From assembly GCA_003231975.1 (NCBI GenBank), contig QIKW01000270.1, forward strand, positions 1 to 61,083: a DNA stretch of 61,083 bases. Direction: 5' to 3'. The notes beneath the pieces were generated by a model. The model did not search any database. It was not told where the DNA came from and saw only the letters and a program-made list of their open reading frames with translations. This DNA comes from Acidimicrobiia bacterium (GTDB taxonomy: Bacteria > Actinomycetota > Acidimicrobiia > Acidimicrobiales > SZUA-35). Positions 2,562-16,274 of this stretch are shown here, piece by piece (the first letter of the stretch is position 1; each line of letters opens with the position of its first letter). A program made the position numbers and the translations under genes.

Positions 2562-3224
2562 GTGACTTCAAGCCTTATCCGACGCCTGTCTGCACCGCTG
2601 CTCGGTGTTGTGTTGGTGGCAGCTGCGTGTGTTAGCGACGACCCCGATCCCAATGTGGCAACTGTCTCACCAGACTCCGACCTCGTGATGGTCATGGGAG
2701 AGTTCTGGTTTCTTCCCTCGGTGATTACCGTTACAGAAGGCACCACAATTCGGATCACTCTGGTGAACGAAGGGCTTGTAGACCACGAGTTCATGATCGG
2801 CCGAGACGTCAACCCGGGTGGGGGGTACGCCGAAGATCTGCTTGGTATGGCCCTGGTCAGTGCCGAAGGTTACGGGTTCGAAGCTATGCCTCCTCTTGAC
2901 GGAGGCGAGGGCGGCGGCATGGAAGGCATGGACGCCGAGGCCCCACACGACGAAGACGAGGGTGAAGACGCCGCTGAAGACGCCGAGGCCCCACACGACG
3001 AAGCCGAGGGTGAAGACGCCGAAGCCGCCCCACACGGTGAAGACGCCGGTGATGGCCTCGTTCTACACGGCTCGCAGATAACGGTTCGTCCAGGCGGGAA
3101 AGTCCAAATCGTTCTTGAGATCCCCACAGGCGTCACCGGAGAATGGAGCCTTGGCTGCTTCATCGAAGGCCACTTCGAAGCAGGAATGAAAGGCACCCTT
3201 TCCATCTCGGCCTCTAAGGCATAG
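2562..3224 (+). CDS. Cupredoxin-fold (type-1 blue copper) lipoprotein with a His/Asp/Glu-rich insert
   Basis: ORF 2520..3224. GTG 2562 follows the GAAAGGACGAAG SD. Lipobox VAAAC. T1 Cu ligand set: H in VDHEF, then GCFIEGHFEAGM. The insert has repeated APHDE(D/A)EGEDA. Confidence 0.75.
   Translation: MTSSLIRRLSAPLLGVVLVAAACVSDDPDPNVATVSPDSDLVMVMGEFWFLPSVITVTEGTTIRITLVNEGLVDHEFMIGRDVNPGGGYAEDLLGMALVSAEGYGFEAMPPLDGGEGGGMEGMDAEAPHDEDEGEDAAEDAEAPHDEAEGEDAEAAPHGEDAGDGLVLHGSQITVRPGGKVQIVLEIPTGVTGEWSLGCFIEGHFEAGMKGTLSISASKA
2931..3053 (+). repeat. 48-nt coding tandem repeat (about 2.5 units) encoding DAEAPHDExEGEDAxx
   Basis: Units 2931-2978 and 2979-3026 are near-identical; a partial third unit follows. 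Confidence 0.8.
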
Positions 3225-3265
3225 CGACAGAGGGCCTAGGGCTCCGCCTCGGTTCCCCTTGGTTG

Positions 3266-4153
3266 TCAGATCGGGCTTCCTACCAAGGAATCCAGTGCAA
3301 CCAGAGCGAAGAGAATGGACAAGTAAGAGATTGAATCTCGGAAGAAACCCATTGCCCTTTGCTCTGTAAGCCGGAAGGATCCCACAACGAACCAGCCGCC
3401 GAGCACCGCGGTCGGTATCAGGTAGACCAGGCCAACTGCTGAGCCAAAACCCACACCAAGGGAGACGAGCGCCGTGGCAACCGTGTAAAGCTGCATTTGG
3501 CGGATCGTTGCAGCCACGCCGGCCACAACGGGCAGCATTGGTACAGCGGCGTTTCGATAGTCGTCTCGATAGCGAATAGCCAGAGCCCAGAAGTGGGGCG
3601 GAGTCCACAAACAAACCACCATGAACAGCATGACAGCCTCAAACGAGATCGTTCCGGTTACAGCAGCCCAGCCAACCAGAACCGGCCCGGCGCCTGCCGC
3701 TCCCCCAACCACGATGTTCTGCGGTGTGCGCCGCTTCAGCCAGAGCGTGTACACGAACACATAAAAGAGTAGCGAACCAGTGGTTAACCACGCAGCCAAT
3801 TGGCCTACAAGAACTGCCAGCCAAATGTGCCCGGCAAAACCAAGGCAAACACCAAAGACCACGGCATTCCGAACCGGGACGGCATTGGTGGCAAGCGGCC
3901 TATGGGCTGTGCGATCCATCACCTGATCGATGTCACGGTCATACACGTTGTTCAAAACATTTGCACCACCGGCCGAAAGTGTGCCCCCAATCACGGTGGC
4001 CGCAACCAACCATGTGGACGGCCAGCCACCAGCAGCCAGCATCATCACGGGCACGGTTGTGACGAGGAGCAACTCGATTATTCGAGGCTTGGTGAGCCGA
4101 ATGTAGGTGCCGACGACCGATCGCCTACCAACGACGGTTCGGGTATCGAGCAC
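3266..4153 (-). CDS. ctaB: Protoheme IX farnesyltransferase (heme O synthase)
   Basis: UbiA-family motif NNVYDRDIDQVMDRTAHRPL, polytopic. Start moved to GTG 4153, 5 nt after the upstream stop; the longer ORF start at 4240 would overlap the upstream gene by 82 nt. Confidence 0.9.
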   Translation of the reverse strand: MLDTRTVVGRRSVVGTYIRLTKPRIIELLLVTTVPVMMLAAGGWPSTWLVAATVIGGTLSAGGANVLNNVYDRDIDQVMDRTAHRPLATNAVPVRNAVVFGVCLGFAGHIWLAVLVGQLAAWLTTGSLLFYVFVYTLWLKRRTPQNIVVGGAAGAGPVLVGWAAVTGTISFEAVMLFMVVCLWTPPHFWALAIRYRDDYRNAAVPMLPVVAGVAATIRQMQLYTVATALVSLGVGFGSAVGLVYLIPTAVLGGWFVVGSFRLTEQRAMGFFRDSISYLSILFALVALDSLVGSPI

Positions 4154-4158
4154 GGCGC

Positions 4159-4857
4159 TCAGGCCGCCAATACGAAGAGCTTGGTGTTCATTCCGGCATC
4201 CCAATGCGCTCCCCTGCCCTGGAAGCAACCAACCGCCCATTCACCAATTGCATCTTCGGGAACCGTAACGGTGAGGCGAGCAACTTCACCTGACCGACGC
4301 AACACCATGTAGCCCTCGTGAGGAGCCTCCTCACCGGCATCACCCATGGCACCCATCTCCTCATCGGTCATGTCCATGGCATCACCATCACCCATGTCCA
4401 TGCCCTCCATGGCCCCCATCTCCTCATCGGTCATGTCCATGGCATCACCATCACCCATGGCACCCATCTCCTCATCGGTCATGTCCATGGCATCACCATC
4501 ACCCATGTCCATGCCCTCCATGGCCCCCATGTTCATTCCTGCATTGGCGGGCACAACCGAAGGTGTCACATCTTCGAAAAAGTCGTGTTCAAAGCCGTCA
4601 GGAAAACCAGCCGGGGATTTCAGCAAGTTGCGGCCAATCATGAACTCATGCTCGTTGGCCCCACCGTTCACGATTACGAACGTGACGGTCTCGCCTGCGG
4701 TCACCTCGATGCGGTCTGCACCGAAGCTGAACTCATCCATGTTAATCACGATCTCGCCGTTGGCATCGGGGCTCAAAACGACGTCTTCCTCAGCCAGGCC
4801 ACAGCCAGCTGCAACAATTCCAATTGCGGCTAGCGAAAACAATGGGATTCGTTTCAT
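4159..4857 (-). CDS. Cupredoxin-fold (type-1 copper) lipoprotein with a Met/Asp-rich repeat insert
   Basis: Lipobox VAAGC. Ligands: H in NEHEF, then GCFQGRGAHWDAGM. The insert is GDGDAMDMTDEEMGAM x3. It lies between ctaE and ctaB on the same strand. Confidence 0.8.
   Translation of the reverse strand: MKRIPLFSLAAIGIVAAGCGLAEEDVVLSPDANGEIVINMDEFSFGADRIEVTAGETVTFVIVNGGANEHEFMIGRNLLKSPAGFPDGFEHDFFEDVTPSVVPANAGMNMGAMEGMDMGDGDAMDMTDEEMGAMGDGDAMDMTDEEMGAMEGMDMGDGDAMDMTDEEMGAMGDAGEEAPHEGYMVLRRSGEVARLTVTVPEDAIGEWAVGCFQGRGAHWDAGMNTKLFVLAA
4336..4530 (-). repeat. Near-perfect coding tandem repeat (42-nt core x3, at 4354, 4417 and 4465) encoding the Met/Asp-rich motif
   Basis: The core catctcctcatcggtcatgtccatggcatcaccatcacccat recurs exactly three times with 63- and 48-nt spacing. 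Confidence 0.9.
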
Positions 4858-4902: not shown

Positions 4903-5466
4903 CTAGATCAGATAGAGCACGGGGTAGAAGAACACCCAGACAATGTCAACGAAATGCCAGTACTTGACCCCTGCTTCAACCGGCCAAGAATCGTCGGCGT
5001 ACCGGCCCGCCTTGGCATTTCGAATCAGCACCGTAAGAAAGATCAGGCCGGTGATCACGTGGAAGGCATGAATCCCAGTCATCGTGAAGAACACCGTGCC
5101 AAACGCTGTCCCTGGAGGAAACTCCATGAACGCCTCATACCACTCAAAGGCCACGCCACCCAGAAAGATCGTGCCGAGAATCAATGTCGCCCAGAGGTAT
5201 TGCACCATTGCAGCCTGGTCGCCTTTGTGGGCTGCGTGTTCGGCTCTGAAAGCCGTGTAGCTGGAAGCCAGGAGAATGACAGTGATCACCAGGCCGATCG
5301 ACTGAGAGACAGCCTCGTCAACCTCGGTTCCCAACAAACTGAACCGGATGGCAATCAACCCAGCGAACAACATCGCCTCGGACAAGAAGAACAGCCACAG
5401 CCCGATGCGATTGATCTTGATTCGAGAAACGCCGTGCTCTAGGGGAGGGGCATCGGTAACGGTCAT
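4903..5466 (-). CDS. ctaE: Cytochrome c oxidase subunit III
   Basis: Polytopic COX3-like sequence. ATG 5466 overlaps the upstream stop (ATGA). Confidence 0.9.
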   Translation of the reverse strand: MTVTDAPPLEHGVSRIKINRIGLWLFFLSEAMLFAGLIAIRFSLLGTEVDEAVSQSIGLVITVILLASSYTAFRAEHAAHKGDQAAMVQYLWATLILGTIFLGGVAFEWYEAFMEFPPGTAFGTVFFTMTGIHAFHVITGLIFLTVLIRNAKAGRYADDSWPVEAGVKYWHFVDIVWVFFYPVLYLI

Positions 5467-5651
5467 GAGTGTTCGTTCCCAAAGATGTTTCTCAAGTGCA
5501 TAAACGCAACCAAGATGATCGCCGCCTTCGCAATGGAGATGATGAGGAGCCAAAAGAAGGCTCCGGCCACCGCTTCGGCGCTCACAAAGTACTCAATAAC
5601 TGTCAAGACACTAAGCACCACAATTGCTGTAAACCCTGGTGATTCTCTCAT
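5463..5651 (-). CDS. ctaF: Small cytochrome oxidase subunit IV (COX4_pro-like, 2 TM)
   Basis: 62 aa with two hydrophobic helices and VAFMHLRN. ATGA overlaps with both ctaD and ctaE. Confidence 0.65.
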   Translation of the reverse strand: MRESPGFTAIVVLSVLTVIEYFVSAEAVAGAFFWLLIISIAKAAIILVAFMHLRNIFGNEHS

Positions 5652-7483
5652 GCCTCCACCGTTTCTTGGATCTTTGGCAGCGTTCCGATGCCAAGGTCGG
5701 CATGGTCAGAGTCTGGCTCTCCATAGCCGTAAGGATCGGCCAGGATGATCGGGGGGACCTCAAAATTCTCATGCGGCGGTGGCGAAGGGACCTGCCATTC
5801 CAACGTACGAGCGCCCCACGGGTTGGCCGGAGCCTTCGCCCCCTTGATCCAGCTGTAAATGAAGTTGTAGAGGAACACAACGAAGCTCGTGCCCAGAAAG
5901 AACCCGGCCATCGAGATAACACGATTGGTGCCGACCAAATCCGGGGTGTAGTCAGCAACCCTGCGGTTCATCCCCTGGAGGCCAACGATGAACATCGGCA
6001 GGAACGTAACGTTGAACCCCACCATCATCCACCAGAAGTGAATCTTGCCGAGCCGATCGTTCATCATCCGGCCGGTCATCTTTGGGAACCAATAGTAGAT
6101 AGCTGCAAAGAGCCCGAAGATCCCCCCGCCGAGGACCACGTAATGGAGATGGGCAACAACGAAGTAGGTGTCTTGAAGCTGGATGTCGACCGGAACATCG
6201 GCCAGGAATACCCCTGTGATCCCTCCGATCAGGAAGTTGAAGAGCACAGCTAATGCGAACAACATTGGCAGTTCTAACCGGATCTTTCCAAGCCAAAGAG
6301 TTCCTACCGCAGACAAAAAGATCATTCCAGTCGGGATCGAGATCAACTCTGTGCTGGCCAGGAACGGCTTGCGAAGGGCCTCGGCCATGCCACTGGTGAA
6401 CATGTGGTGGGCCCAAACAAACATGCTCATGCCCATTATCCCAAGCAGCCCGCCAACCGCCCACTTGTATCCAAACAGCGGCTTCCGAGAGAAGTGCGAG
6501 ATGATCTCAAGGGTGATTCCGAAGGCTGGCAGGATCATGATGTAGACCGCGGGGTGCGAATAGAACCAGAAGATGTGCTGATACAGCAAGGGGTCCCCGC
6601 CCGAGGCCGGATCGAAGAACACCATTCCCGCCGTTCGGTCAAGCACCACCATAAGCATCGCAAGGGCAATGAACTGAGTGAAGATCAGCGACAGAATCGA
6701 GGTGACAAAGATGGACCAGACAAAGATGGGGAGCCTCATCCAGTTCATGCCCTTTGCCCTCATCGTCACCACGGTCACAATGATGTTGAGGGCGCCAATT
6801 ATTGACGACAACCCCAGGGTGAAGAACGCCAGGTTGAAGAACAGGCCGCCAACGTCACTTTCAACAGACAGCGGGGCGTATCCCGTCCAGCCCGTGTCGT
6901 AGCCGCCTGATACAAAGGAAACGGTCAGCGCAATAAGGACTGGGGGAATCAACCAGAACGAGAGGGCATTCAGCCTGGGGAAGGCCATGTCGTCAGCCCC
7001 GATCATGATCGGTACGACGAAGTTGCCAAAGGCACCAACGGTTGCTGCAACGGCGACGAACACCATCATCGTGCCGTGGAGGCTCATTATCGCGTTGTAT
7101 CGACCTGAGTCCAGCAGAGCTTCGCCGTTGTCCATCAGCTCATAGCGCATCAGCATTGCGAACAGCCCTGCCATGAAGAACATGGTGAGGAATTTGACCA
7201 GATACTGAATACCGATCACCTTGTGGTCGGTGTCGAAGTCAAGGTAGCGGCGCCAACCAGTAGTGGTGTAGGGCACCAGCTCCAGCCCAAACCATTCCCT
7301 AGCCCAGTATCGCCACACACCAACGGCCAACAACCAGCCGATGAGGGCGAACATCCAGGCTCCGGCCGAAACCGACTCAACCTCCCAAGCTCTTGCTCCG
7401 GTGGCCACACGAATGGTCATCAACAAGGCAGCGCCCAATATGTAACCGACTGCCCCGCCGATCAAACCGCGAACGATGTTCAT
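5648..7483 (-). CDS. ctaD: Cytochrome c oxidase subunit I (aa3-type) with an N-terminal 2-TM extension
   Basis: TDHKVIGIQYL, SHPAVYIMILP and WAHHMF motifs. ATG 7483 lies 4 nt after the AAGGGAG SD. Confidence 0.95.
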   Translation of the reverse strand: MNIVRGLIGGAVGYILGAALLMTIRVATGARAWEVESVSAGAWMFALIGWLLAVGVWRYWAREWFGLELVPYTTTGWRRYLDFDTDHKVIGIQYLVKFLTMFFMAGLFAMLMRYELMDNGEALLDSGRYNAIMSLHGTMMVFVAVAATVGAFGNFVVPIMIGADDMAFPRLNALSFWLIPPVLIALTVSFVSGGYDTGWTGYAPLSVESDVGGLFFNLAFFTLGLSSIIGALNIIVTVVTMRAKGMNWMRLPIFVWSIFVTSILSLIFTQFIALAMLMVVLDRTAGMVFFDPASGGDPLLYQHIFWFYSHPAVYIMILPAFGITLEIISHFSRKPLFGYKWAVGGLLGIMGMSMFVWAHHMFTSGMAEALRKPFLASTELISIPTGMIFLSAVGTLWLGKIRLELPMLFALAVLFNFLIGGITGVFLADVPVDIQLQDTYFVVAHLHYVVLGGGIFGLFAAIYYWFPKMTGRMMNDRLGKIHFWWMMVGFNVTFLPMFIVGLQGMNRRVADYTPDLVGTNRVISMAGFFLGTSFVVFLYNFIYSWIKGAKAPANPWGARTLEWQVPSPPPHENFEVPPIILADPYGYGEPDSDHADLGIGTLPKIQETVEA

Positions 7484-7535
7484 CAAGCTCCCTTTTCATT
7501 CGACATGGTCATCGACACCGTGATCTGTTTCACTT

Positions 7536-8360
7536 CTATCCCGCGGAAGCCTCAAGCCAAGCGTCGAATTCTGCTTCGGTCACAACGCTTACACCCGTCC
7601 ACATTCGAGCGTGGCCAACCCCGCAGAGTTCGGCACACTGCACTCTCAGCTCGTCAGCACTTTCGAAGGTTCCGAGCTTCTCAGCGGTCACCATCGTTGT
7701 GGTAATTATGCCCGGAACTGCATCCATCTTGATCCGGAAGGCCGGGATCCAGAACGAGTGGATTACATCCGTTGAGGAGATTCGGAACATGATTCGGGTG
7801 TCGATGGGCACCATTAGGGTTCCGCGGGTCTGCACACCAGACTCGGCGTATGTGTACTCCCAACTCCAGCGCTCACCCTTCACGTCAATCACCAGATCGG
7901 GTTCGGGGTAGGCTCGCAGCTCGTCCAACCCGCTGAATCCAGGAGTAATGATTACAACGATCGACAAGATCGTCGTGACGGCCAACCAACCAACAACGAA
8001 TGTCCGATTGGTTCGGATCGGCGGACCGTCAACATCTTGGCCCCGATCCCGGTCTCGAAGCAGCGAATAGCCGATAACCACCAACACAAAGGTGGCAATC
8101 GGCACCGCCATGAGCATCAACAGGTCAAACGCCTCATCGGTGATCCGAGCTTCGCGTGATGCGCCGAACGGATGCCAGTCGTAGGCGGTAACCGCCCACC
8201 AACCAAGCACGGTGGCGATCAACCAGGCTACGCCAACAACAACGAGGCGGTTACGAGTGTTCGATTCTTGCTCTCCCCCTGACACGATTCGGAAAGCTAC
8301 TACATCATGTAGCGGTCGTCCAGCCTTCGACGAATATCTGGACATGAACCCCGAAATCAA
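7536..8360 (-). CDS. ctaC: Cytochrome c oxidase subunit II (CuA centre, no fused cytochrome c domain)
   Basis: HSFWIPAFRIKMD and the CuA motif CAELCGVGHARM. The protein ends right after the CuA domain. The exact start is uncertain. Confidence 0.9.
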   Translation of the reverse strand: MISGFMSRYSSKAGRPLHDVVAFRIVSGGEQESNTRNRLVVVGVAWLIATVLGWWAVTAYDWHPFGASREARITDEAFDLLMLMAVPIATFVLVVIGYSLLRDRDRGQDVDGPPIRTNRTFVVGWLAVTTILSIVVIITPGFSGLDELRAYPEPDLVIDVKGERWSWEYTYAESGVQTRGTLMVPIDTRIMFRISSTDVIHSFWIPAFRIKMDAVPGIITTTMVTAEKLGTFESADELRVQCAELCGVGHARMWTGVSVVTEAEFDAWLEASAG

Positions 8361-8457: not shown

Positions 8458-9309
8458 ATGACCGGGATCGAGATCCTTATGGCAACTTCGGCCCTGCTGG
8501 CTGTGCCTGCCATCGCCAGCCGCTGGAAGATCAAGCCCCACCCGGTTGCGCTTGCCTCCGTATGGTCGGTTGGTCTGGCTGCTCTCATCGTGATGACAAC
8601 TTTGACAATTTGCGCGGTAGCTCTCATCGGTTGGTTTGCTTCTGGCGCTGAGAGCATGGCGTTCTCTCCCCGACACCTGATTCCCTCGGTCCCTTTCACC
8701 GGCTGGATCAGCCTGTTGATCATCACGTTGGCGTTCATCGGAGGGGCCCGGGCGTTCTTCTCCGCCCTTTGGCGCCGCCACTTGCTTTATGAGCAGCTTA
8801 GATTTGCTGACGTCACCAAGATCGACGACGTCGCAGTGGTAACGCTTCCGACTCAGGAGTTCGTCGCATTGGCGGTGCCGGGCCCAAAGGGATGCGTGCT
8901 GATGTCGCAGGGCGCAATCCAGCGCTTAACGGGTCCCGAACTTCTTGCGGTGGTTCATCATGAAGAAGCCCACCGCCGCCGGGGCCATCACCGTCACCTG
9001 CTGCTGGCCCGGGCAGCCGAGCGTGCACTGTGGTTCGTTCCAGGAATGCGGCATGCCACTCGAGCGCTTCGTAACTCGCTCGAAATCGTGGCTGATTCCG
9101 ACGCTTGCCAGGCGGTTGAGGCCTCCACACTCCGGGCCGCACTAGTTGACAACGCTTCTTCCAACGATCCAGTTGCCGCTAAGCGAATGAGCTTGTTGGA
9201 TCAGGATCCCTCTACTCGGTCTGCTCTGGCCGCTCTGTCGGTTGGCCTCGGCCTGGTGAGCGTGCTGGCCGTGGCACTTGAGCTAAGTTGGCTGGGGATC
9301 GGGATCTGA
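8458..9309 (+). CDS. M56-family (BlaR1-like) membrane zinc metalloprotease lacking a sensor domain
   Basis: Four N-terminal TM helices and HEEAH (HExxH). GGGGAGG SD before ATG 8458. Followed by a BlaI-type repressor gene. Confidence 0.75.
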   Translation: MTGIEILMATSALLAVPAIASRWKIKPHPVALASVWSVGLAALIVMTTLTICAVALIGWFASGAESMAFSPRHLIPSVPFTGWISLLIITLAFIGGARAFFSALWRRHLLYEQLRFADVTKIDDVAVVTLPTQEFVALAVPGPKGCVLMSQGAIQRLTGPELLAVVHHEEAHRRRGHHRHLLLARAAERALWFVPGMRHATRALRNSLEIVADSDACQAVEASTLRAALVDNASSNDPVAAKRMSLLDQDPSTRSALAALSVGLGLVSVLAVALELSWLGIGI

Positions 9310-9329
9310 CAGATGGCGGTAGAGGGCCA

Positions 9330-9677
9330 ATGAGACGACAAAGAGGGGCACTGGAGCGCGCGGTACTTGAAGTTCTTTGGGATCACGGTGGCTGGCTCTC
9401 ACCAGGAGAGGTAAGCCAGCGGCTCGAAGCCGACCTTGCCTACACCACCGTTGTTACAGTGCTACGCAGGCTCTACGGGAAAGACATGTTGGCCAGAGAG
9501 TCCGAAGGACGGGCCCACGTGTACCGCCCCCATCGCACGCGCGAAGAGCACACGGCGGTGGCGATGGCCGACATTCTTACTGGGGCCCGAGACCCCGCAA
9601 CGGCGTTGAACCACTTTGTCGACACGCTCGGTGAAGACGATCGGCGCCAATTGCGCCGACTGCTGCGCCGCAGCTAG
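9330..9677 (+). CDS. BlaI/MecI/CopY-family winged-helix transcriptional repressor
   Basis: LERAVLEVLW...SPGEV...YTTVVTVLRRLYGKDML pattern. ATG 9330 lies downstream of the M56 stop at 9307-9309. Confidence 0.85.
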   Translation: MRRQRGALERAVLEVLWDHGGWLSPGEVSQRLEADLAYTTVVTVLRRLYGKDMLARESEGRAHVYRPHRTREEHTAVAMADILTGARDPATALNHFVDTLGEDDRRQLRRLLRRS

Positions 9678-12719: not shown

Positions 12720-13967
12720 GTGATTCAGAAACGATCAACCACGCGGTTAGCACTGCTGTTTGGTTTTGCGCTGGTAGCGGCCGCCTGCGGGGCCGATGCC
12801 GACGACACAGCGCCAGCCAGCGACACCGAGGCGCCTGCGGACGCCGAACCCGCAAACACCGAGCCAATCAAGATCGGGGCTCTCACTTCTCTTACCGGAG
12901 TGTTCACATCGTGGGGGATCCCGTCAAGCAAGGGCATGCAGCTGGCAGTTGATGAGATTAATGCGGCGGGCGGTGTCGACGGCCGCATGTTGGAACTGGT
13001 TGTTGTTGATGACCAGTCAAACCCTGAAGAGGCGGTGATTGCGTTTGAACGCCTGATCGAAGAAGGTGTGGTTGCAGTTGGCGGCACCATCTCAAGTGGT
13101 GTGGGGCTGGCTACTGCCTTGGTGGCTGAGGAGCAACAAATTCCGCTCTTCCTCAGCAAAGCCGGATCGGCTGCCATCCTCACCACCGACAGCCGCTACA
13201 CGTTCAGGACGTGCCTCCCTGCCGCGCCAATGATCGCCGAACCCTGGGCCCAGTACGCAACCGAGCAAGGCTTCACCAGGATCGGCGTGATCATCGCCGA
13301 CTACGAGTGGGGCCAGTCATTCGGAAGCGCAGTCGAGTCTGAGTTTGGGAGCTTGGACGGCGTCGAGTACCAAATCGAAGTGGCCCCTGTGCCCGAGCAA
13401 GACTTCACCACCTACCTGCGGAGCCTTGAAGCATTCGAGCCAGACCTCATTCTTGGCACGGGCCACCCACCAGGCGTTGCTGCTATCACGGTGCAGTCTG
13501 CCGATCTTGGGTTTGACGTTGGGGTCTCTGGGCCGTCATCTTCACTGTCGGCAGTGATGAGCGCCGTAGGCGATTCGGCTATCGGCCGCTACCTCGACTA
13601 CAGCTGCGCCGACTACTTCAGCGATTCCTACCAGGATCTGGCTAAGCGCTACATAGCTTCCTCCGGGGAAACCTTCATGGAAGACGACGCCGTGGCAGGA
13701 TTCGGCGTTGTCACAATGGTTGCCGATGCGGTCAAGAATGTTGGCGACGATCCCGCCGCAATAGCGGCATACCTCCACACCCAGACTTATGACCTGCCCG
13801 GCTATGCCTTCCAGATGGGTTGGACCGAGTGGGGCGAATTGGCAACCTCCCAGCCGTTGTTGATCCAGGTTGGGGCCGGGCCGGCGCCGGAGGGCTTGAA
13901 CACCGGCGGAGACTGGTACCCCGAGCTTTTGCTCTTGCCAGATGTGCTTGAGCCCTATGTCCCGTAA
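12720..13967 (+). CDS. Liv-type (Peripla_BP_6) ABC substrate-binding lipoprotein
   Basis: Lipobox VAAAC, acidic linker, LivJ/K-like periplasmic binding fold. First gene of a 5-gene transporter. Confidence 0.9.
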   Translation: MIQKRSTTRLALLFGFALVAAACGADADDTAPASDTEAPADAEPANTEPIKIGALTSLTGVFTSWGIPSSKGMQLAVDEINAAGGVDGRMLELVVVDDQSNPEEAVIAFERLIEEGVVAVGGTISSGVGLATALVAEEQQIPLFLSKAGSAAILTTDSRYTFRTCLPAAPMIAEPWAQYATEQGFTRIGVIIADYEWGQSFGSAVESEFGSLDGVEYQIEVAPVPEQDFTTYLRSLEAFEPDLILGTGHPPGVAAITVQSADLGFDVGVSGPSSSLSAVMSAVGDSAIGRYLDYSCADYFSDSYQDLAKRYIASSGETFMEDDAVAGFGVVTMVADAVKNVGDDPAAIAAYLHTQTYDLPGYAFQMGWTEWGELATSQPLLIQVGAGPAPEGLNTGGDWYPELLLLPDVLEPYVP

Positions 13968-13973
13968 CAATCG

Positions 13974-14717
13974 GTGACCCTTCTGGAACTGGCCGGAGTT
14001 GAGAAACACTTCGGCGGTCTCCCCGCCGTCGCAGGCGTGGATCTCAAGGTCAACGAGGGCGAGATTCTCGCCCTCGTTGGCCCCAACGGAGCAGGCAAGA
14101 GCACTCTGCTAAAAGCCATCAGCGGTCTCCAGCCGCCAACTCTTGGAAGTATCAAGCTTCTTGGCAAGGAGATCGCCGGTTTGTCGGCCCACCAGACCCG
14201 CAGGCGAGGCGTGGCAATGGTGCTGCAAACCCCGCGCACGTTCCATTCAATGACTGTTCGGGAGAACGTGATGATCGGCGCCATGTTCGGCTCATCCGCC
14301 GGAACAACCAGTGCCCCCTCAATCGCAGATCGGGCTAACGAGTCCCTCGGATTCGTTGGCCTCACTCACCTGGCAGACCAGTCTGTAGACACCCTCAACC
14401 TGCACCAGCAGAGGTTTCTGGAGCTGGCAAGATCCCTGGCAGGCAGGCCCAAACTGTTGCTGTTGGATGAGGTAATGGCTGGCCTGAACGACACCGAACT
14501 GCGGGCCTCCATAGACATCGTGAGGCTGGCGAGGGATCAGCTCGGCGTTACCGTCATCTGGGTCGAACACGTGATGAAGGCCGTGATGAGCCTGGCCGAG
14601 CGGGTGGTTGTGCTTGACTTCGGGTCGCTGCTGGCCGACGGCCAACCAGCCGACGTGATGCGCAATCCCAAGGTGGTAGCCGCCTATCTGGGCGCAGAAA
14701 TCCAAACCAATGGCTGA
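13974..14717 (+). CDS. livG: Branched-chain amino acid-type ABC transporter ATP-binding protein
   Basis: Walker A GPNGAGKST and Walker B LLLLDEV. Confidence 0.9.
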   Translation: MTLLELAGVEKHFGGLPAVAGVDLKVNEGEILALVGPNGAGKSTLLKAISGLQPPTLGSIKLLGKEIAGLSAHQTRRRGVAMVLQTPRTFHSMTVRENVMIGAMFGSSAGTTSAPSIADRANESLGFVGLTHLADQSVDTLNLHQQRFLELARSLAGRPKLLLLDEVMAGLNDTELRASIDIVRLARDQLGVTVIWVEHVMKAVMSLAERVVVLDFGSLLADGQPADVMRNPKVVAAYLGAEIQTNG

Positions 14718-15420
14718 GGACCTCCTTACCGTCTCAGCCCTCTCGGCGGGGTATCTGGGCGAAGACGTTCTCTCCGAGGTAACGCTCGATGTTGCCTCCG
14801 GCGAAGCCGTTGCGGTAATTGGATCGAACGGCGCAGGCAAGACCACTCTGCTGAGGGCGATCTGTGGCCTTTTGCCAACAACCGCTGGCTCGGTCCATTT
14901 CGGCCAAACCAAGCTGACCGGCCTTGGCGCCCACAGTATTGCCCGCGCTGGAATCGCCTTTGTGCCTGCCGAGCGCCATCTGTTTCCAACAATGTCGGTA
15001 AGGGACAACCTCTCGCTTGGCGCATACCCGAAGCGCCATCAACACGCCAAGCTTGAATTTGTATTCGAGCTCTTCCCACGACTGGAGGAGCGCGGGGGCC
15101 AGCACGCTGGAACAATGAGCGGCGGCGAGCAACAGATGCTGGCGGTTGGGCGGGCGCTTATGTCAGAGCCTCGGCTGCTGGTGCTGGACGAGCCAACAAC
15201 AGGCCTTTCCCCGCTGCTGGCAACCGAGGCCTACAGCGCACTAGCCAAGTTGCGGGCCGACGGTCTGACCATTCTTGTTGCCGAGCAGCAGGTGCCGCTT
15301 GCGCTCAGCCTGGCCGACCGCGGCTATGTACTTGATCACGGAAAAATCCAGCTTTCTGGGCAGGCGGCCGAGTTGGCTGACGACCCAGGTGTTCGCAAGG
15401 CATACATGGGGGTGACGTGA
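14710..15420 (+). CDS. livF: Branched-chain amino acid-type ABC transporter ATP-binding protein
   Basis: GSNGAGKTT, MSGGEQQML and LLVLDEP. Confidence 0.9.
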   Translation: MAEDLLTVSALSAGYLGEDVLSEVTLDVASGEAVAVIGSNGAGKTTLLRAICGLLPTTAGSVHFGQTKLTGLGAHSIARAGIAFVPAERHLFPTMSVRDNLSLGAYPKRHQHAKLEFVFELFPRLEERGGQHAGTMSGGEQQMLAVGRALMSEPRLLVLDEPTTGLSPLLATEAYSALAKLRADGLTILVAEQQVPLALSLADRGYVLDHGKIQLSGQAAELADDPGVRKAYMGVT

Positions 15421-16274
15421 CAGCTGTAGTGCTTGACGGAATTGTTCTAGGCCTCCAATTGGGCTTGCTCGGGGTTGGCCTCACGCTGGTCTATGGCCTC
15501 GGCGGCGTCCTCAACCTGGCTCACGGTCAATTCGCGGTTCTTGGAGCAATCGTTATCGCCAGAATGCTCGACGCCAGCTTCTCACTTTGGGTGGCAATCC
15601 CGGTTGGGCTGGTGTGCATCGGGCTGGTTGGGCTCCTCATCGATCTCACTTTGATGCGACCGGTTTACAAACTCAGGGGCGAAGAGCGGGTACTGCTTGG
15701 GCTGCTGTTGATGCTGGGTGTTGGCACGATCATCGACGGGCTACTCGAGTGGCGCTACCCAATTGAGGCTCTCAGCATTCGTATCAGCGGAGACCCAGTG
15801 CCAATTCTGGGGGTCTCCATGCGCATCGGCGGCCTGGTTGGATCCGGAATTGCTCTGGTCGCGGGGGCCGCTCTCTTCGTCTTCTTCCGATTCTCAACCT
15901 TTGGCCGCGCTACCCGATCGGTAATTCAGGACGAGGAAGGAGCCAGGCTGTGCGGCATCAACCCGGCTACGGTCCGCACCACTATCTTCGCGCTCAGCGC
16001 AGTTCTTGCCGGTCTGGTTGCCATTGCGAGGGCAATGACCGCCCCAATCGTGGTGACCGGAGGCGTCAGGCTCACGATTCTGGCGCTAATAGTTGCAGTC
16101 GTTGGCGGCCTTGGCAGCGTGTCGGGCGCGTTCCTGGCTGGGATTCTGCTTGGCGTCGTTAGCACTGTGAGCGCCTTCTACATCGGCTCGTACATAACCT
16201 CGATCATCTTGCTGGCCACGGCCGCCATTACAATCGTGTTCAGACCAAGCGGCCTGCTGGGTCACCGGCCATGA
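15417..16274 (+). CDS. livH: Branched-chain amino acid-type ABC permease
   Basis: Polytopic LivH-like protein with 4-nt overlaps on both sides. Confidence 0.9.
   Translation: MTAVVLDGIVLGLQLGLLGVGLTLVYGLGGVLNLAHGQFAVLGAIVIARMLDASFSLWVAIPVGLVCIGLVGLLIDLTLMRPVYKLRGEERVLLGLLLMLGVGTIIDGLLEWRYPIEALSIRISGDPVPILGVSMRIGGLVGSGIALVAGAALFVFFRFSTFGRATRSVIQDEEGARLCGINPATVRTTIFALSAVLAGLVAIARAMTAPIVVTGGVRLTILALIVAVVGGLGSVSGAFLAGILLGVVSTVSAFYIGSYITSIILLATAAITIVFRPSGLLGHRP

Follow-up and report, generated by a model that had tools for sequence, protein, structure and literature searches.

A predicted lipoprotein cupredoxin of the AcoP type as a conserved partner gene, and candidate electron donor, of haem-copper oxidases that have no cytochrome c domain

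The window analysed here, a 61,083-nucleotide stretch of an Acidimicrobiia bacterium (assembly GCA_003231975.1, contig QIKW01000270.1), carries a cytochrome oxidase (cta) locus in which ctaB is bracketed by genes for two putative copper lipoproteins, cupredoxin A and cupredoxin B. On the minus strand the order is ctaC-ctaD-ctaF(COX4_pro)-ctaE-cupredoxin B-ctaB, and cupredoxin A, encoded on the plus strand, converges on ctaB. To judge from gene order, the B-type cupredoxin is a conserved oxidase partner gene in at least three bacterial phyla. The explanation that we favour, with a probability of roughly 0.5, is that B is a redox-active partner feeding the CuA centre of this cytochrome-c-less oxidase, with its Met/Asp-rich loop acting as a Cu(I)-capturing antenna, and that A is a separate copper handler.

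A and B are cupredoxin-fold proteins with a complete and conserved type-1 copper ligand set. The ligands are H75...C199-x4-H204-x4-M209 in A and H70...C211-x6-H218-x4-M223 in B (loop sequence CFQGRGAHWDAGM), and the four His/Cys/His/Met positions are invariant in four alignments (A1, A2, A3 and A4) holding hundreds of sequences. AlphaFold2 models built on family alignments have a core predicted local distance difference test score (pLDDT) >90 for both proteins, and all top Foldseek matches of the two models are cupredoxins. Both are therefore cupredoxins by fold as well as by motif, and both probably bind copper. In addition, H91, H180 and M184 of B are conserved in the close B-type set (alignment A2) and represent a possible second metal site. 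Each gene has a plausible ribosome-binding site and encodes a signal peptide ending at the lipobox Cys (A, LVAAAC, Cys23; B, VAAGC, Cys19), a residue that is invariant across 30 aligned homologues. Lgt and LspA are both encoded in the source genome, and B is predicted to be anchored through its lipobox at the outer face of the membrane. The two proteins share 31% identity (BLASTP, E value 3e-19). A sequence-only reading of the window, made without database searches, had described the two open reading frames (ORFs) as paralogous lipoproteins, each with a full set of blue-copper ligands, and this description was borne out.

The best match of B in the Protein Data Bank is AcoP of Acidithiobacillus ferrooxidans (7Z3B; E value 6e-5 with the single sequence, 1.4e-10 with a B-type profile), in an alignment that spans the HxF-x-IGR ligand strand, a GFP...FF segment and the GCF-x5-H-x4-M loop. 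AcoP chains also rank first in Foldseek for both models (E value 5.5e-10 for B and 9e-10 for A; target-normalised template modelling score 0.76-0.81), with auracyanins, rusticyanin and multicopper-oxidase domains next in rank. AcoP is the closest match of A by sequence as well, and it is placed inside the A/B family tree. In A. ferrooxidans the AcoP gene belongs to an oxidase operon, and the protein stays with that oxidase during purification and takes up electrons from cytochrome c4 (PMC5982212); the arrangement in the window, which the sequence-only reading had set outside the textbook actinobacterial cta locus, is thus not without precedent.

Within each fold lies a low-complexity insert of 55-70 amino acids (aa), which the sequence-only reading had also noticed and which is predicted to be disordered: pLDDT falls to ~50-57 over residues 111-178 of B (~68 aa) and residues 111-168 of A (~58 aa). 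The B insert holds three copies of the repeat GDGDAMDMTDEEMGAM, with a 48-nt tandem period at the DNA level (98% match), and the A insert is made of APHDE(D/A)EGEDA-type repeats with a 39-nt DNA tandem period. The B protein has six MxM and six MxxM motifs, both classically associated with Cu(I) in CueO, PcoA and CopA-type oxidases and in Ctr transporters. Among B orthologues with 97.5-100% identical cores, the insert is 54, 62, 66, 117 or 130 aa long and its repeat units differ, suggesting that repeat expansion and contraction are ongoing; between near-identical orthologues (P0002, P0003 and P0009; P0005 and P0006; P0019 and P0023) the gap in insert length reaches 64 aa. What is kept in the B-type inserts is composition (Met, Asp, Glu, Gly and Ser), and not length or sequence, a pattern that fits selection on composition. 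Taken with the predicted disorder, it speaks for a polymer-like role in metal binding or capture and against a defined docking surface.

The contrast between the two inserts is not confined to the window. We compared 207 family members and built a maximum-likelihood tree on their trimmed core. Between the ligands, Met and His make up a median of 12.1% and 2.8% in C-x6-H proteins (n=124), as against 4.7% and 5.0% in C-x4-H proteins (n=43); the sequences within these samples are related by descent, which makes the nominal P values too optimistic. The tree splits the two groups, with support of 99 in the Shimodaira-Hasegawa-like approximate likelihood-ratio test (SH-aLRT) for the main C-x6-H clade; AcoP branches with a small, basal set of C-x6-H proteins, and loop type needs 3-5 changes on the tree versus ~32 with shuffled labels. 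The opposition of Met-rich and His/acid-rich inserts, first read from A and B themselves, is thus a real family-level property. A recent local duplication as the origin of A and B was considered and rejected, since they belong to separate, well-supported subfamilies. With regard to metal chemistry, a His-rich segment in CopI peptides binds Cu(II) tightly through nitrogen donors, and the flexible internal His/Met-rich segment of CopI is considered a Cu(I) site feeding the cupredoxin centre (PMC13308877). By analogy, the inserts are consistent with Cu(I)-type chemistry in B and Cu(II)-type chemistry in A.

Homologues of B numbered 62 in a word-indexed search and came from Acidimicrobiia, metagenome-assembled genomes (MAGs) of other Actinomycetota, and Chloroflexota; a B-type profile search against 1.8 billion representatives returned 115 proteins at E <1e-30 and 1434 at E <1e-10. 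The window proteins were then mapped onto 31 fetched loci, most of the relatives being MAGs without phenotypes. A B-type gene stands directly after ctaC-ctaD-(COX4_pro)-ctaE in ~27 of these 31, including loci of Anaerolineales, Dehalococcoidales and Candidatus Microthrix, and is followed by ctaB only in the closest Acidimicrobiales. Other oxidase-adjacent B-type genes are found in genome G018, which belongs to the same class and has the same B-type cta order, and at loci L078 and L079. The last of these, on CP002344.1 (which we take to be Thermaerobacter marianensis), has the order UbiA-cupredoxin-COX2-COX1-COX3 and a cupredoxin with 40 Met residues between its ligands. The nearest relative of AcoP in the tree (P0145, 43% identity) is encoded directly before COX2, is helix-anchored and carries an insert rich in Met, Asp, His and Glu. 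The B family is patchy, with matches at E <1e-10 in five of 121 sampled genomes of the class.

CtaD of the window has 59-62% identity to the cupredoxin-linked CtaD proteins of Chloroflexota and 52% to that of CP002344.1, and only 43% to the second CtaD of its own genome; by sequence identity, these cupredoxin-linked oxidases are therefore a distinct group common to several phyla. This agrees with published COX1 trees, in which the COX1 of iron oxidisers groups with Actinobacteria and Chloroflexi MAGs, and with the rus operon, in which 'cup', the AcoP gene, precedes COX2 (bioRxiv 10.1101/2020.03.01.968255; PMC10654088). Among 78 ORFs downstream of the cupredoxin, no conserved partner beyond ctaB was found, the matches being scattered (two thioredoxin-like, two DsbD, two cytochrome c, and one each of Sco, SURF1 and CtaA). 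Genes for an Lgt paralog and for thioredoxin-like, DsbD-type and rhodanese proteins adjoin the cupredoxin-oxidase cluster in a Chloroflexota locus (L004, 9975-11797) and in CP002344.1 (L079, 3638-6559), a recurrence that suggests a larger assembly or maturation neighbourhood.

The features of the locus are as follows, the two cupredoxin ORFs lying where the sequence-only reading had placed them.

2562..3224, plus strand: cupredoxin A lipoprotein of the C-x4-H-x4-M subfamily (H75, C199, H204, M209); GTG start with AGGA upstream
2892..3065, plus strand: His/Asp/Glu-rich disordered insert of A, residues ~111-168, with DNA-level tandem repeats
3266..4153, minus strand: ctaB, haem o synthase, 295 aa; GTG at 4153 the likely start
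4159..4857, minus strand: cupredoxin B lipoprotein with the C-x6-H-x4-M, AcoP-type loop (H70, C211, H218, M223); ATG start with GAGGA upstream
4321..4533, minus strand: Met/Asp-rich disordered insert of B, residues 109-179, with the 48-nt tandem repeat
4903..5466, minus strand: ctaE, oxidase subunit III; M30 of the long ORF the likely start
5463..5651, minus strand: COX4_pro small subunit IV (ctaF), 62 aa; 29.7 bits against a cut-off of 28.9
5648..7486, minus strand: ctaD, oxidase subunit I
7536..8360, minus strand: ctaC, subunit II with a CuA site and without a cytochrome c domain, 274 aa
8458..9309, plus strand: sensor-less M56/M48-type membrane protease, divergent from ctaC; syntenic with the operon in relatives
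9288..9677, plus strand: BlaI/Penicillinase_R-family repressor; syntenic with the operon in relatives

CtaC consists of a COX2 domain with the CuA motif (HSFW...CAELCGVGHARM), which aligns with subunit II of Rhodobacter sphaeroides. A domain search found no cytochrome c domain in its 274 aa, as the sequence-only reading had held. The longest ORF for ctaB extends to 4240 and would overlap cupredoxin B; the most likely start is GTG 4153, which lies 5 nt past the stop of B and gives a protein of 295 aa as in relatives. The COX4_pro gene overlaps both the ctaD stop and the ctaE start. CtaD has an N-terminal extension of ~80 aa ahead of the COX1 core (7276-7486; the Pfam match begins at residue 91), and the syntenic CtaD proteins of relatives are of comparable length (605-611 aa). 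The M56 protease and BlaI repressor pair accompanies the operon at most Acidimicrobiia loci (L001, L017, L018, L020, L021, L023, L024, L031, L032 and L036) and likewise in the Bacillota-type record CP002344.1 (L079, 12682-14053), and is therefore probably a dedicated regulator of the cupredoxin-linked oxidase operon. Upstream of A, ~0.9 kb (1674-2561) is without a convincing gene; the ORF at 1972-2277 has no Pfam match.

Cupredoxin A presents a different picture. In none of the other genomes examined does an A-type gene lie at a cta locus, and a role for A as a component of the oxidase system was rejected on this ground. Since A-type genes lie away from cta loci elsewhere, the placing of A beside ctaB is a lineage-specific juxtaposition. 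Of the layout proposed by the sequence-only reading, the position of B behind the oxidase genes is hence conserved, whereas the bracket around ctaB is not. The contexts of A-type genes include a HisKA_3 kinase with a GerE-type regulator (L042, and G018, in the latter on a contig other than that of the cta operon), an OmpR-type two-component system with SHOCT, DsbD and thioredoxin-like genes, CsoR and MerR regulators and, for a distant member, a TonB-receptor/DUF3179 neighbourhood. A small SHOCT-domain gene adjoins an A-type or other cupredoxin gene in three unrelated contigs (L042, 4873-5145; L045, 2423-2626; L002, 3034-3285). Our tentative view, held at somewhat less than even odds, is that A, a member of the His/acid-rich subfamily, handles copper under a regulation of its own.

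The source assembly (3.7 Mb, 95.5% complete) encodes a second oxidase on contig C20 (6059-16639), a caa3-type enzyme whose CtaC, of 440 aa, has a fused cytochrome c. Its CtaD, CtaE and CtaF are encoded there too; CtaG-like, second ctaB and ctaA genes at this locus were recognised by resemblance alone. The contig also holds a divergent COX1-like ORF of 566 aa (12845-14545; 108 bits to PF00115) with a COX3-like neighbour. The sequence-only reading had raised the question of a qcrCAB (bcc) complex. Contig C66 does encode a bc-type complex (13149-15540; split cytochrome b, Rieske protein and membrane-anchored monoheme cytochrome c), but it is b6c-like and not of the canonical actinobacterial diheme QcrC type. 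The same contig carries a third, plastocyanin-like lipoprotein gene (6273-6752). Despite the two CuA oxidases, neither PCuAC nor Sco gave a match in this 95.5%-complete genome, and A and B themselves match neither PF04314 (PCuAC) nor PF02630 (Sco). Four of the five carrier genomes are likewise without both. This absence is weak support for a chaperone role, because about half of the 121 sampled Acidimicrobiia also have neither protein and one carrier, G018, has both.

These observations can be assembled into the following mechanism. B would be a type-1, possibly green, cupredoxin of the AcoP family, attached by a lipid tether to the outer face of the membrane. Its gene would be a dedicated accessory of a distinct haem-copper oxidase (ctaC-ctaD-ctaF-ctaE-cup-ctaB) that belongs to the A family, contains CuA and is without cytochrome c. 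Electrons would pass between the copper of B and the CuA in subunit II, and B would in this way stand in for the cytochrome c that is fused in caa3 enzymes, a role that has been proposed in part for AcoP (PMC5982212). The donor to B would likely be the monoheme cytochrome c of the Rieske/split-cytochrome-b complex, or else another donor. The disordered Met/Asp loop, sited like the extended loop of AcoP, would bind Cu(I) and act as a local antenna for the cupredoxin, the copper sites of the oxidase or both, and A, with Cu(II)-type ligands in its His/carboxylate-rich loop, would be regulated separately. The invariant type-1 site favours redox work by B, the Met-rich loop favours copper capture and the operon linkage favours the oxidase as partner; a CtaC with CuA and no fused cytochrome c further counts as a need for a donor.

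Several points weigh against this mechanism. The physiological role of AcoP is itself unsettled (PMC5982212). A protein that did no more than carry electrons would not need a Met-rich loop, and a loop so variable would be an improbable surface for specific docking. The missing PCuAC and Sco fit a metallochaperone equally well. In Chloroflexota, moreover, a cytochrome c gene directly follows the cupredoxin gene, so the cupredoxin need not be the sole donor.

The metallochaperone alternative holds that B, and perhaps A, captures copper outside the membrane and loads CuA or CuB in place of PCuAC and Sco without carrying respiratory electrons. Besides the lack of these two proteins in a genome with two CuA oxidases, it draws on the position of B immediately before the biogenesis gene ctaB, on the recurrence of thioredoxin-like and DsbD genes nearby in some relatives, on the resemblance of the Met-rich B loop to the Met/His tails of PcuC-type chaperones (PMC12860648) and on the likeness that the authors of the AcoP structure drew between its extended loop and motifs that protrude from PCuAC and Sco (PMC10804444). 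We nevertheless consider it rather unlikely, as copper in a fully conserved type-1 site is tightly bound, and such a site typically transfers electrons instead of handing copper over. Furthermore, ctaB follows B only in the closest relatives, roughly half of the sampled Acidimicrobiia have neither PCuAC nor Sco and no B-type gene either, and the carrier G018 has both chaperones. A different possibility is suggested by CueO-type oxidases, in which, as is textbook knowledge, a Met-rich insert is the Cu(I) substrate site: the B loop might bind Cu(I) or Fe(II) as a substrate, to be oxidised by the type-1 copper, with the electron passing through CuA to O2. Such a split oxidase would have its electron sink encoded in its own operon and would recall the mechanism proposed for CopI, in which Cu(I) in the flexible region is oxidised at the cupredoxin centre (PMC13308877). 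The grouping of COX1 from iron oxidisers with Actinobacteria and Chloroflexi MAGs (bioRxiv 10.1101/2020.03.01.968255; PMC10654088) and the co-regulation of Sulfobacillus cupredoxin-oxidase gene pairs during iron oxidation (PMC6315122) also speak for it. Yet AcoP, from an acid habitat rich in copper and iron, has no such insert, metal oxidation by the carrier organisms is without evidence and a Cu(I) flux would be tiny relative to respiratory demand; the idea is, in our estimation, quite improbable. The same low estimate applies to its cuprous version, in which copper detoxification or acquisition would be wired into a proton-pumping oxidase and A would take up the Cu(II) product.

Two further explanations would remove B from the electron path to CuA. 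In a CopI-like role in copper tolerance, A and B would buffer or oxidise envelope copper independently of the oxidase, and the linkage would reflect co-regulation only. The CopI models are indeed the best NCBIfam matches of A and B, which in Pfam give sub-threshold Cupredoxin_1 matches only, and a cupredoxin with an internal ligand-rich region matches the CopI architecture (PMC13308877). A-type relatives adjoin CsoR, MerR and two-component genes, and in the vicinity of some B-type loci there are genes for a CopA-type ATPase, YHS proteins and a multicopper oxidase. However, the scores are far under the cut-offs (NF051440, 36-40 bits versus 280; NF047895, 15-19 versus 200), for which reason membership of CopI was rejected, and no N-terminal His-rich Cu(II) site is present in the mature N-termini GLAEEDVV (B) and VSDDPDPN (A). 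Incidental co-regulation would also leave unexplained why B is tied to oxidase structural genes in at least three phyla, and we regard this role as very improbable. Least probable of all in our view is that B is a non-redox partner that merely stabilises or shields the CuA domain. The conserved operon linkage would suit such a part, and AcoP was, according to a description cited in PMC5982212, first seen as stabilising oxidase activity, but a shield needs no invariance of four copper ligands over hundreds of sequences.

Some elements of this picture are already known, namely AcoP, CopI and the presence of cupredoxin genes beside oxidase genes in A. ferrooxidans and Sulfobacillus (PMC6315122). 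Among open-access papers and preprints, we found none on this lipoprotein family, its Met-rich disordered insert or its split into two subfamilies, and none on the conservation of the B-type gene in oxidase operons of Acidimicrobiia and Chloroflexota. So far AcoP has passed for an oddity of iron-oxidising acidophiles. Our analysis indicates that a distinct cytochrome-c-less oxidase has an AcoP-like cupredoxin as its conserved fifth gene in Acidimicrobiia that are not acidophiles, in Chloroflexota and in a Bacillota-type genome, and that such cupredoxins outside A. ferrooxidans usually have a long, fast-evolving, Met-rich disordered loop. The operon thus offers a tractable system for electron entry to CuA without a fused cytochrome c and for a physical coupling of copper capture to an oxidase, and the Met-rich and His/acid-rich subfamilies form a natural pair for Cu(I) versus Cu(II) handling on one fold.

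Of the known systems, AcoP is the closest. It has the same His/Cys/His/Met site, is membrane-tethered and, like B, is encoded in an oxidase operon; its C-x6-H-x4-M loop is common to AcoP and B, and not to A. The inserts of A and B fall between the first His ligand and the C-terminal strands, just where AcoP has an extended loop that is not conserved (residues 90-128). AcoP differs, however, in its anchor (a transmembrane helix, versus the predicted lipid of A and B), in the position of its gene (acoP precedes COX2, whereas the B gene follows COX3) and in its host, a Gram-negative acidophile. In addition, its extended loop is structured and has no Met/Asp or His/acid low-complexity insert, and its identity to A and B in structural alignment is ~15-18%.

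CopI of Rubrivivax gelatinosus is likewise a single-domain cupredoxin that combines the classical ligands with an internal flexible region thought to bind Cu(I). In CopI, however, that region is short and conserved, whereas the inserts at the equivalent place in the A/B family are far longer (55-130 aa), hypervariable and either Met-only (B) or His/acid-rich (A); CopI also has a His-rich site at its N-terminus, and no oxidase linkage. Auracyanin, halocyanin and sulfocyanin (SoxE) are reminiscent of B as type-1 cupredoxins with a lipid or helix anchor that work with terminal oxidases or bc-type complexes, and sulfocyanin genes adjoin oxidase genes in Sulfobacillus (PMC6315122), but these proteins are much less similar to A and B (Foldseek E value ~1e-5) and have no Met- or His-rich disordered insert. 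Finally, CueO, PcoA and CopA share with B flexible, length-variable MxM/MxxM-rich segments that bind Cu(I) within a cupredoxin domain; they possess their own trinuclear O2-reducing cluster, whereas A and B are single domains with a type-1 site only.

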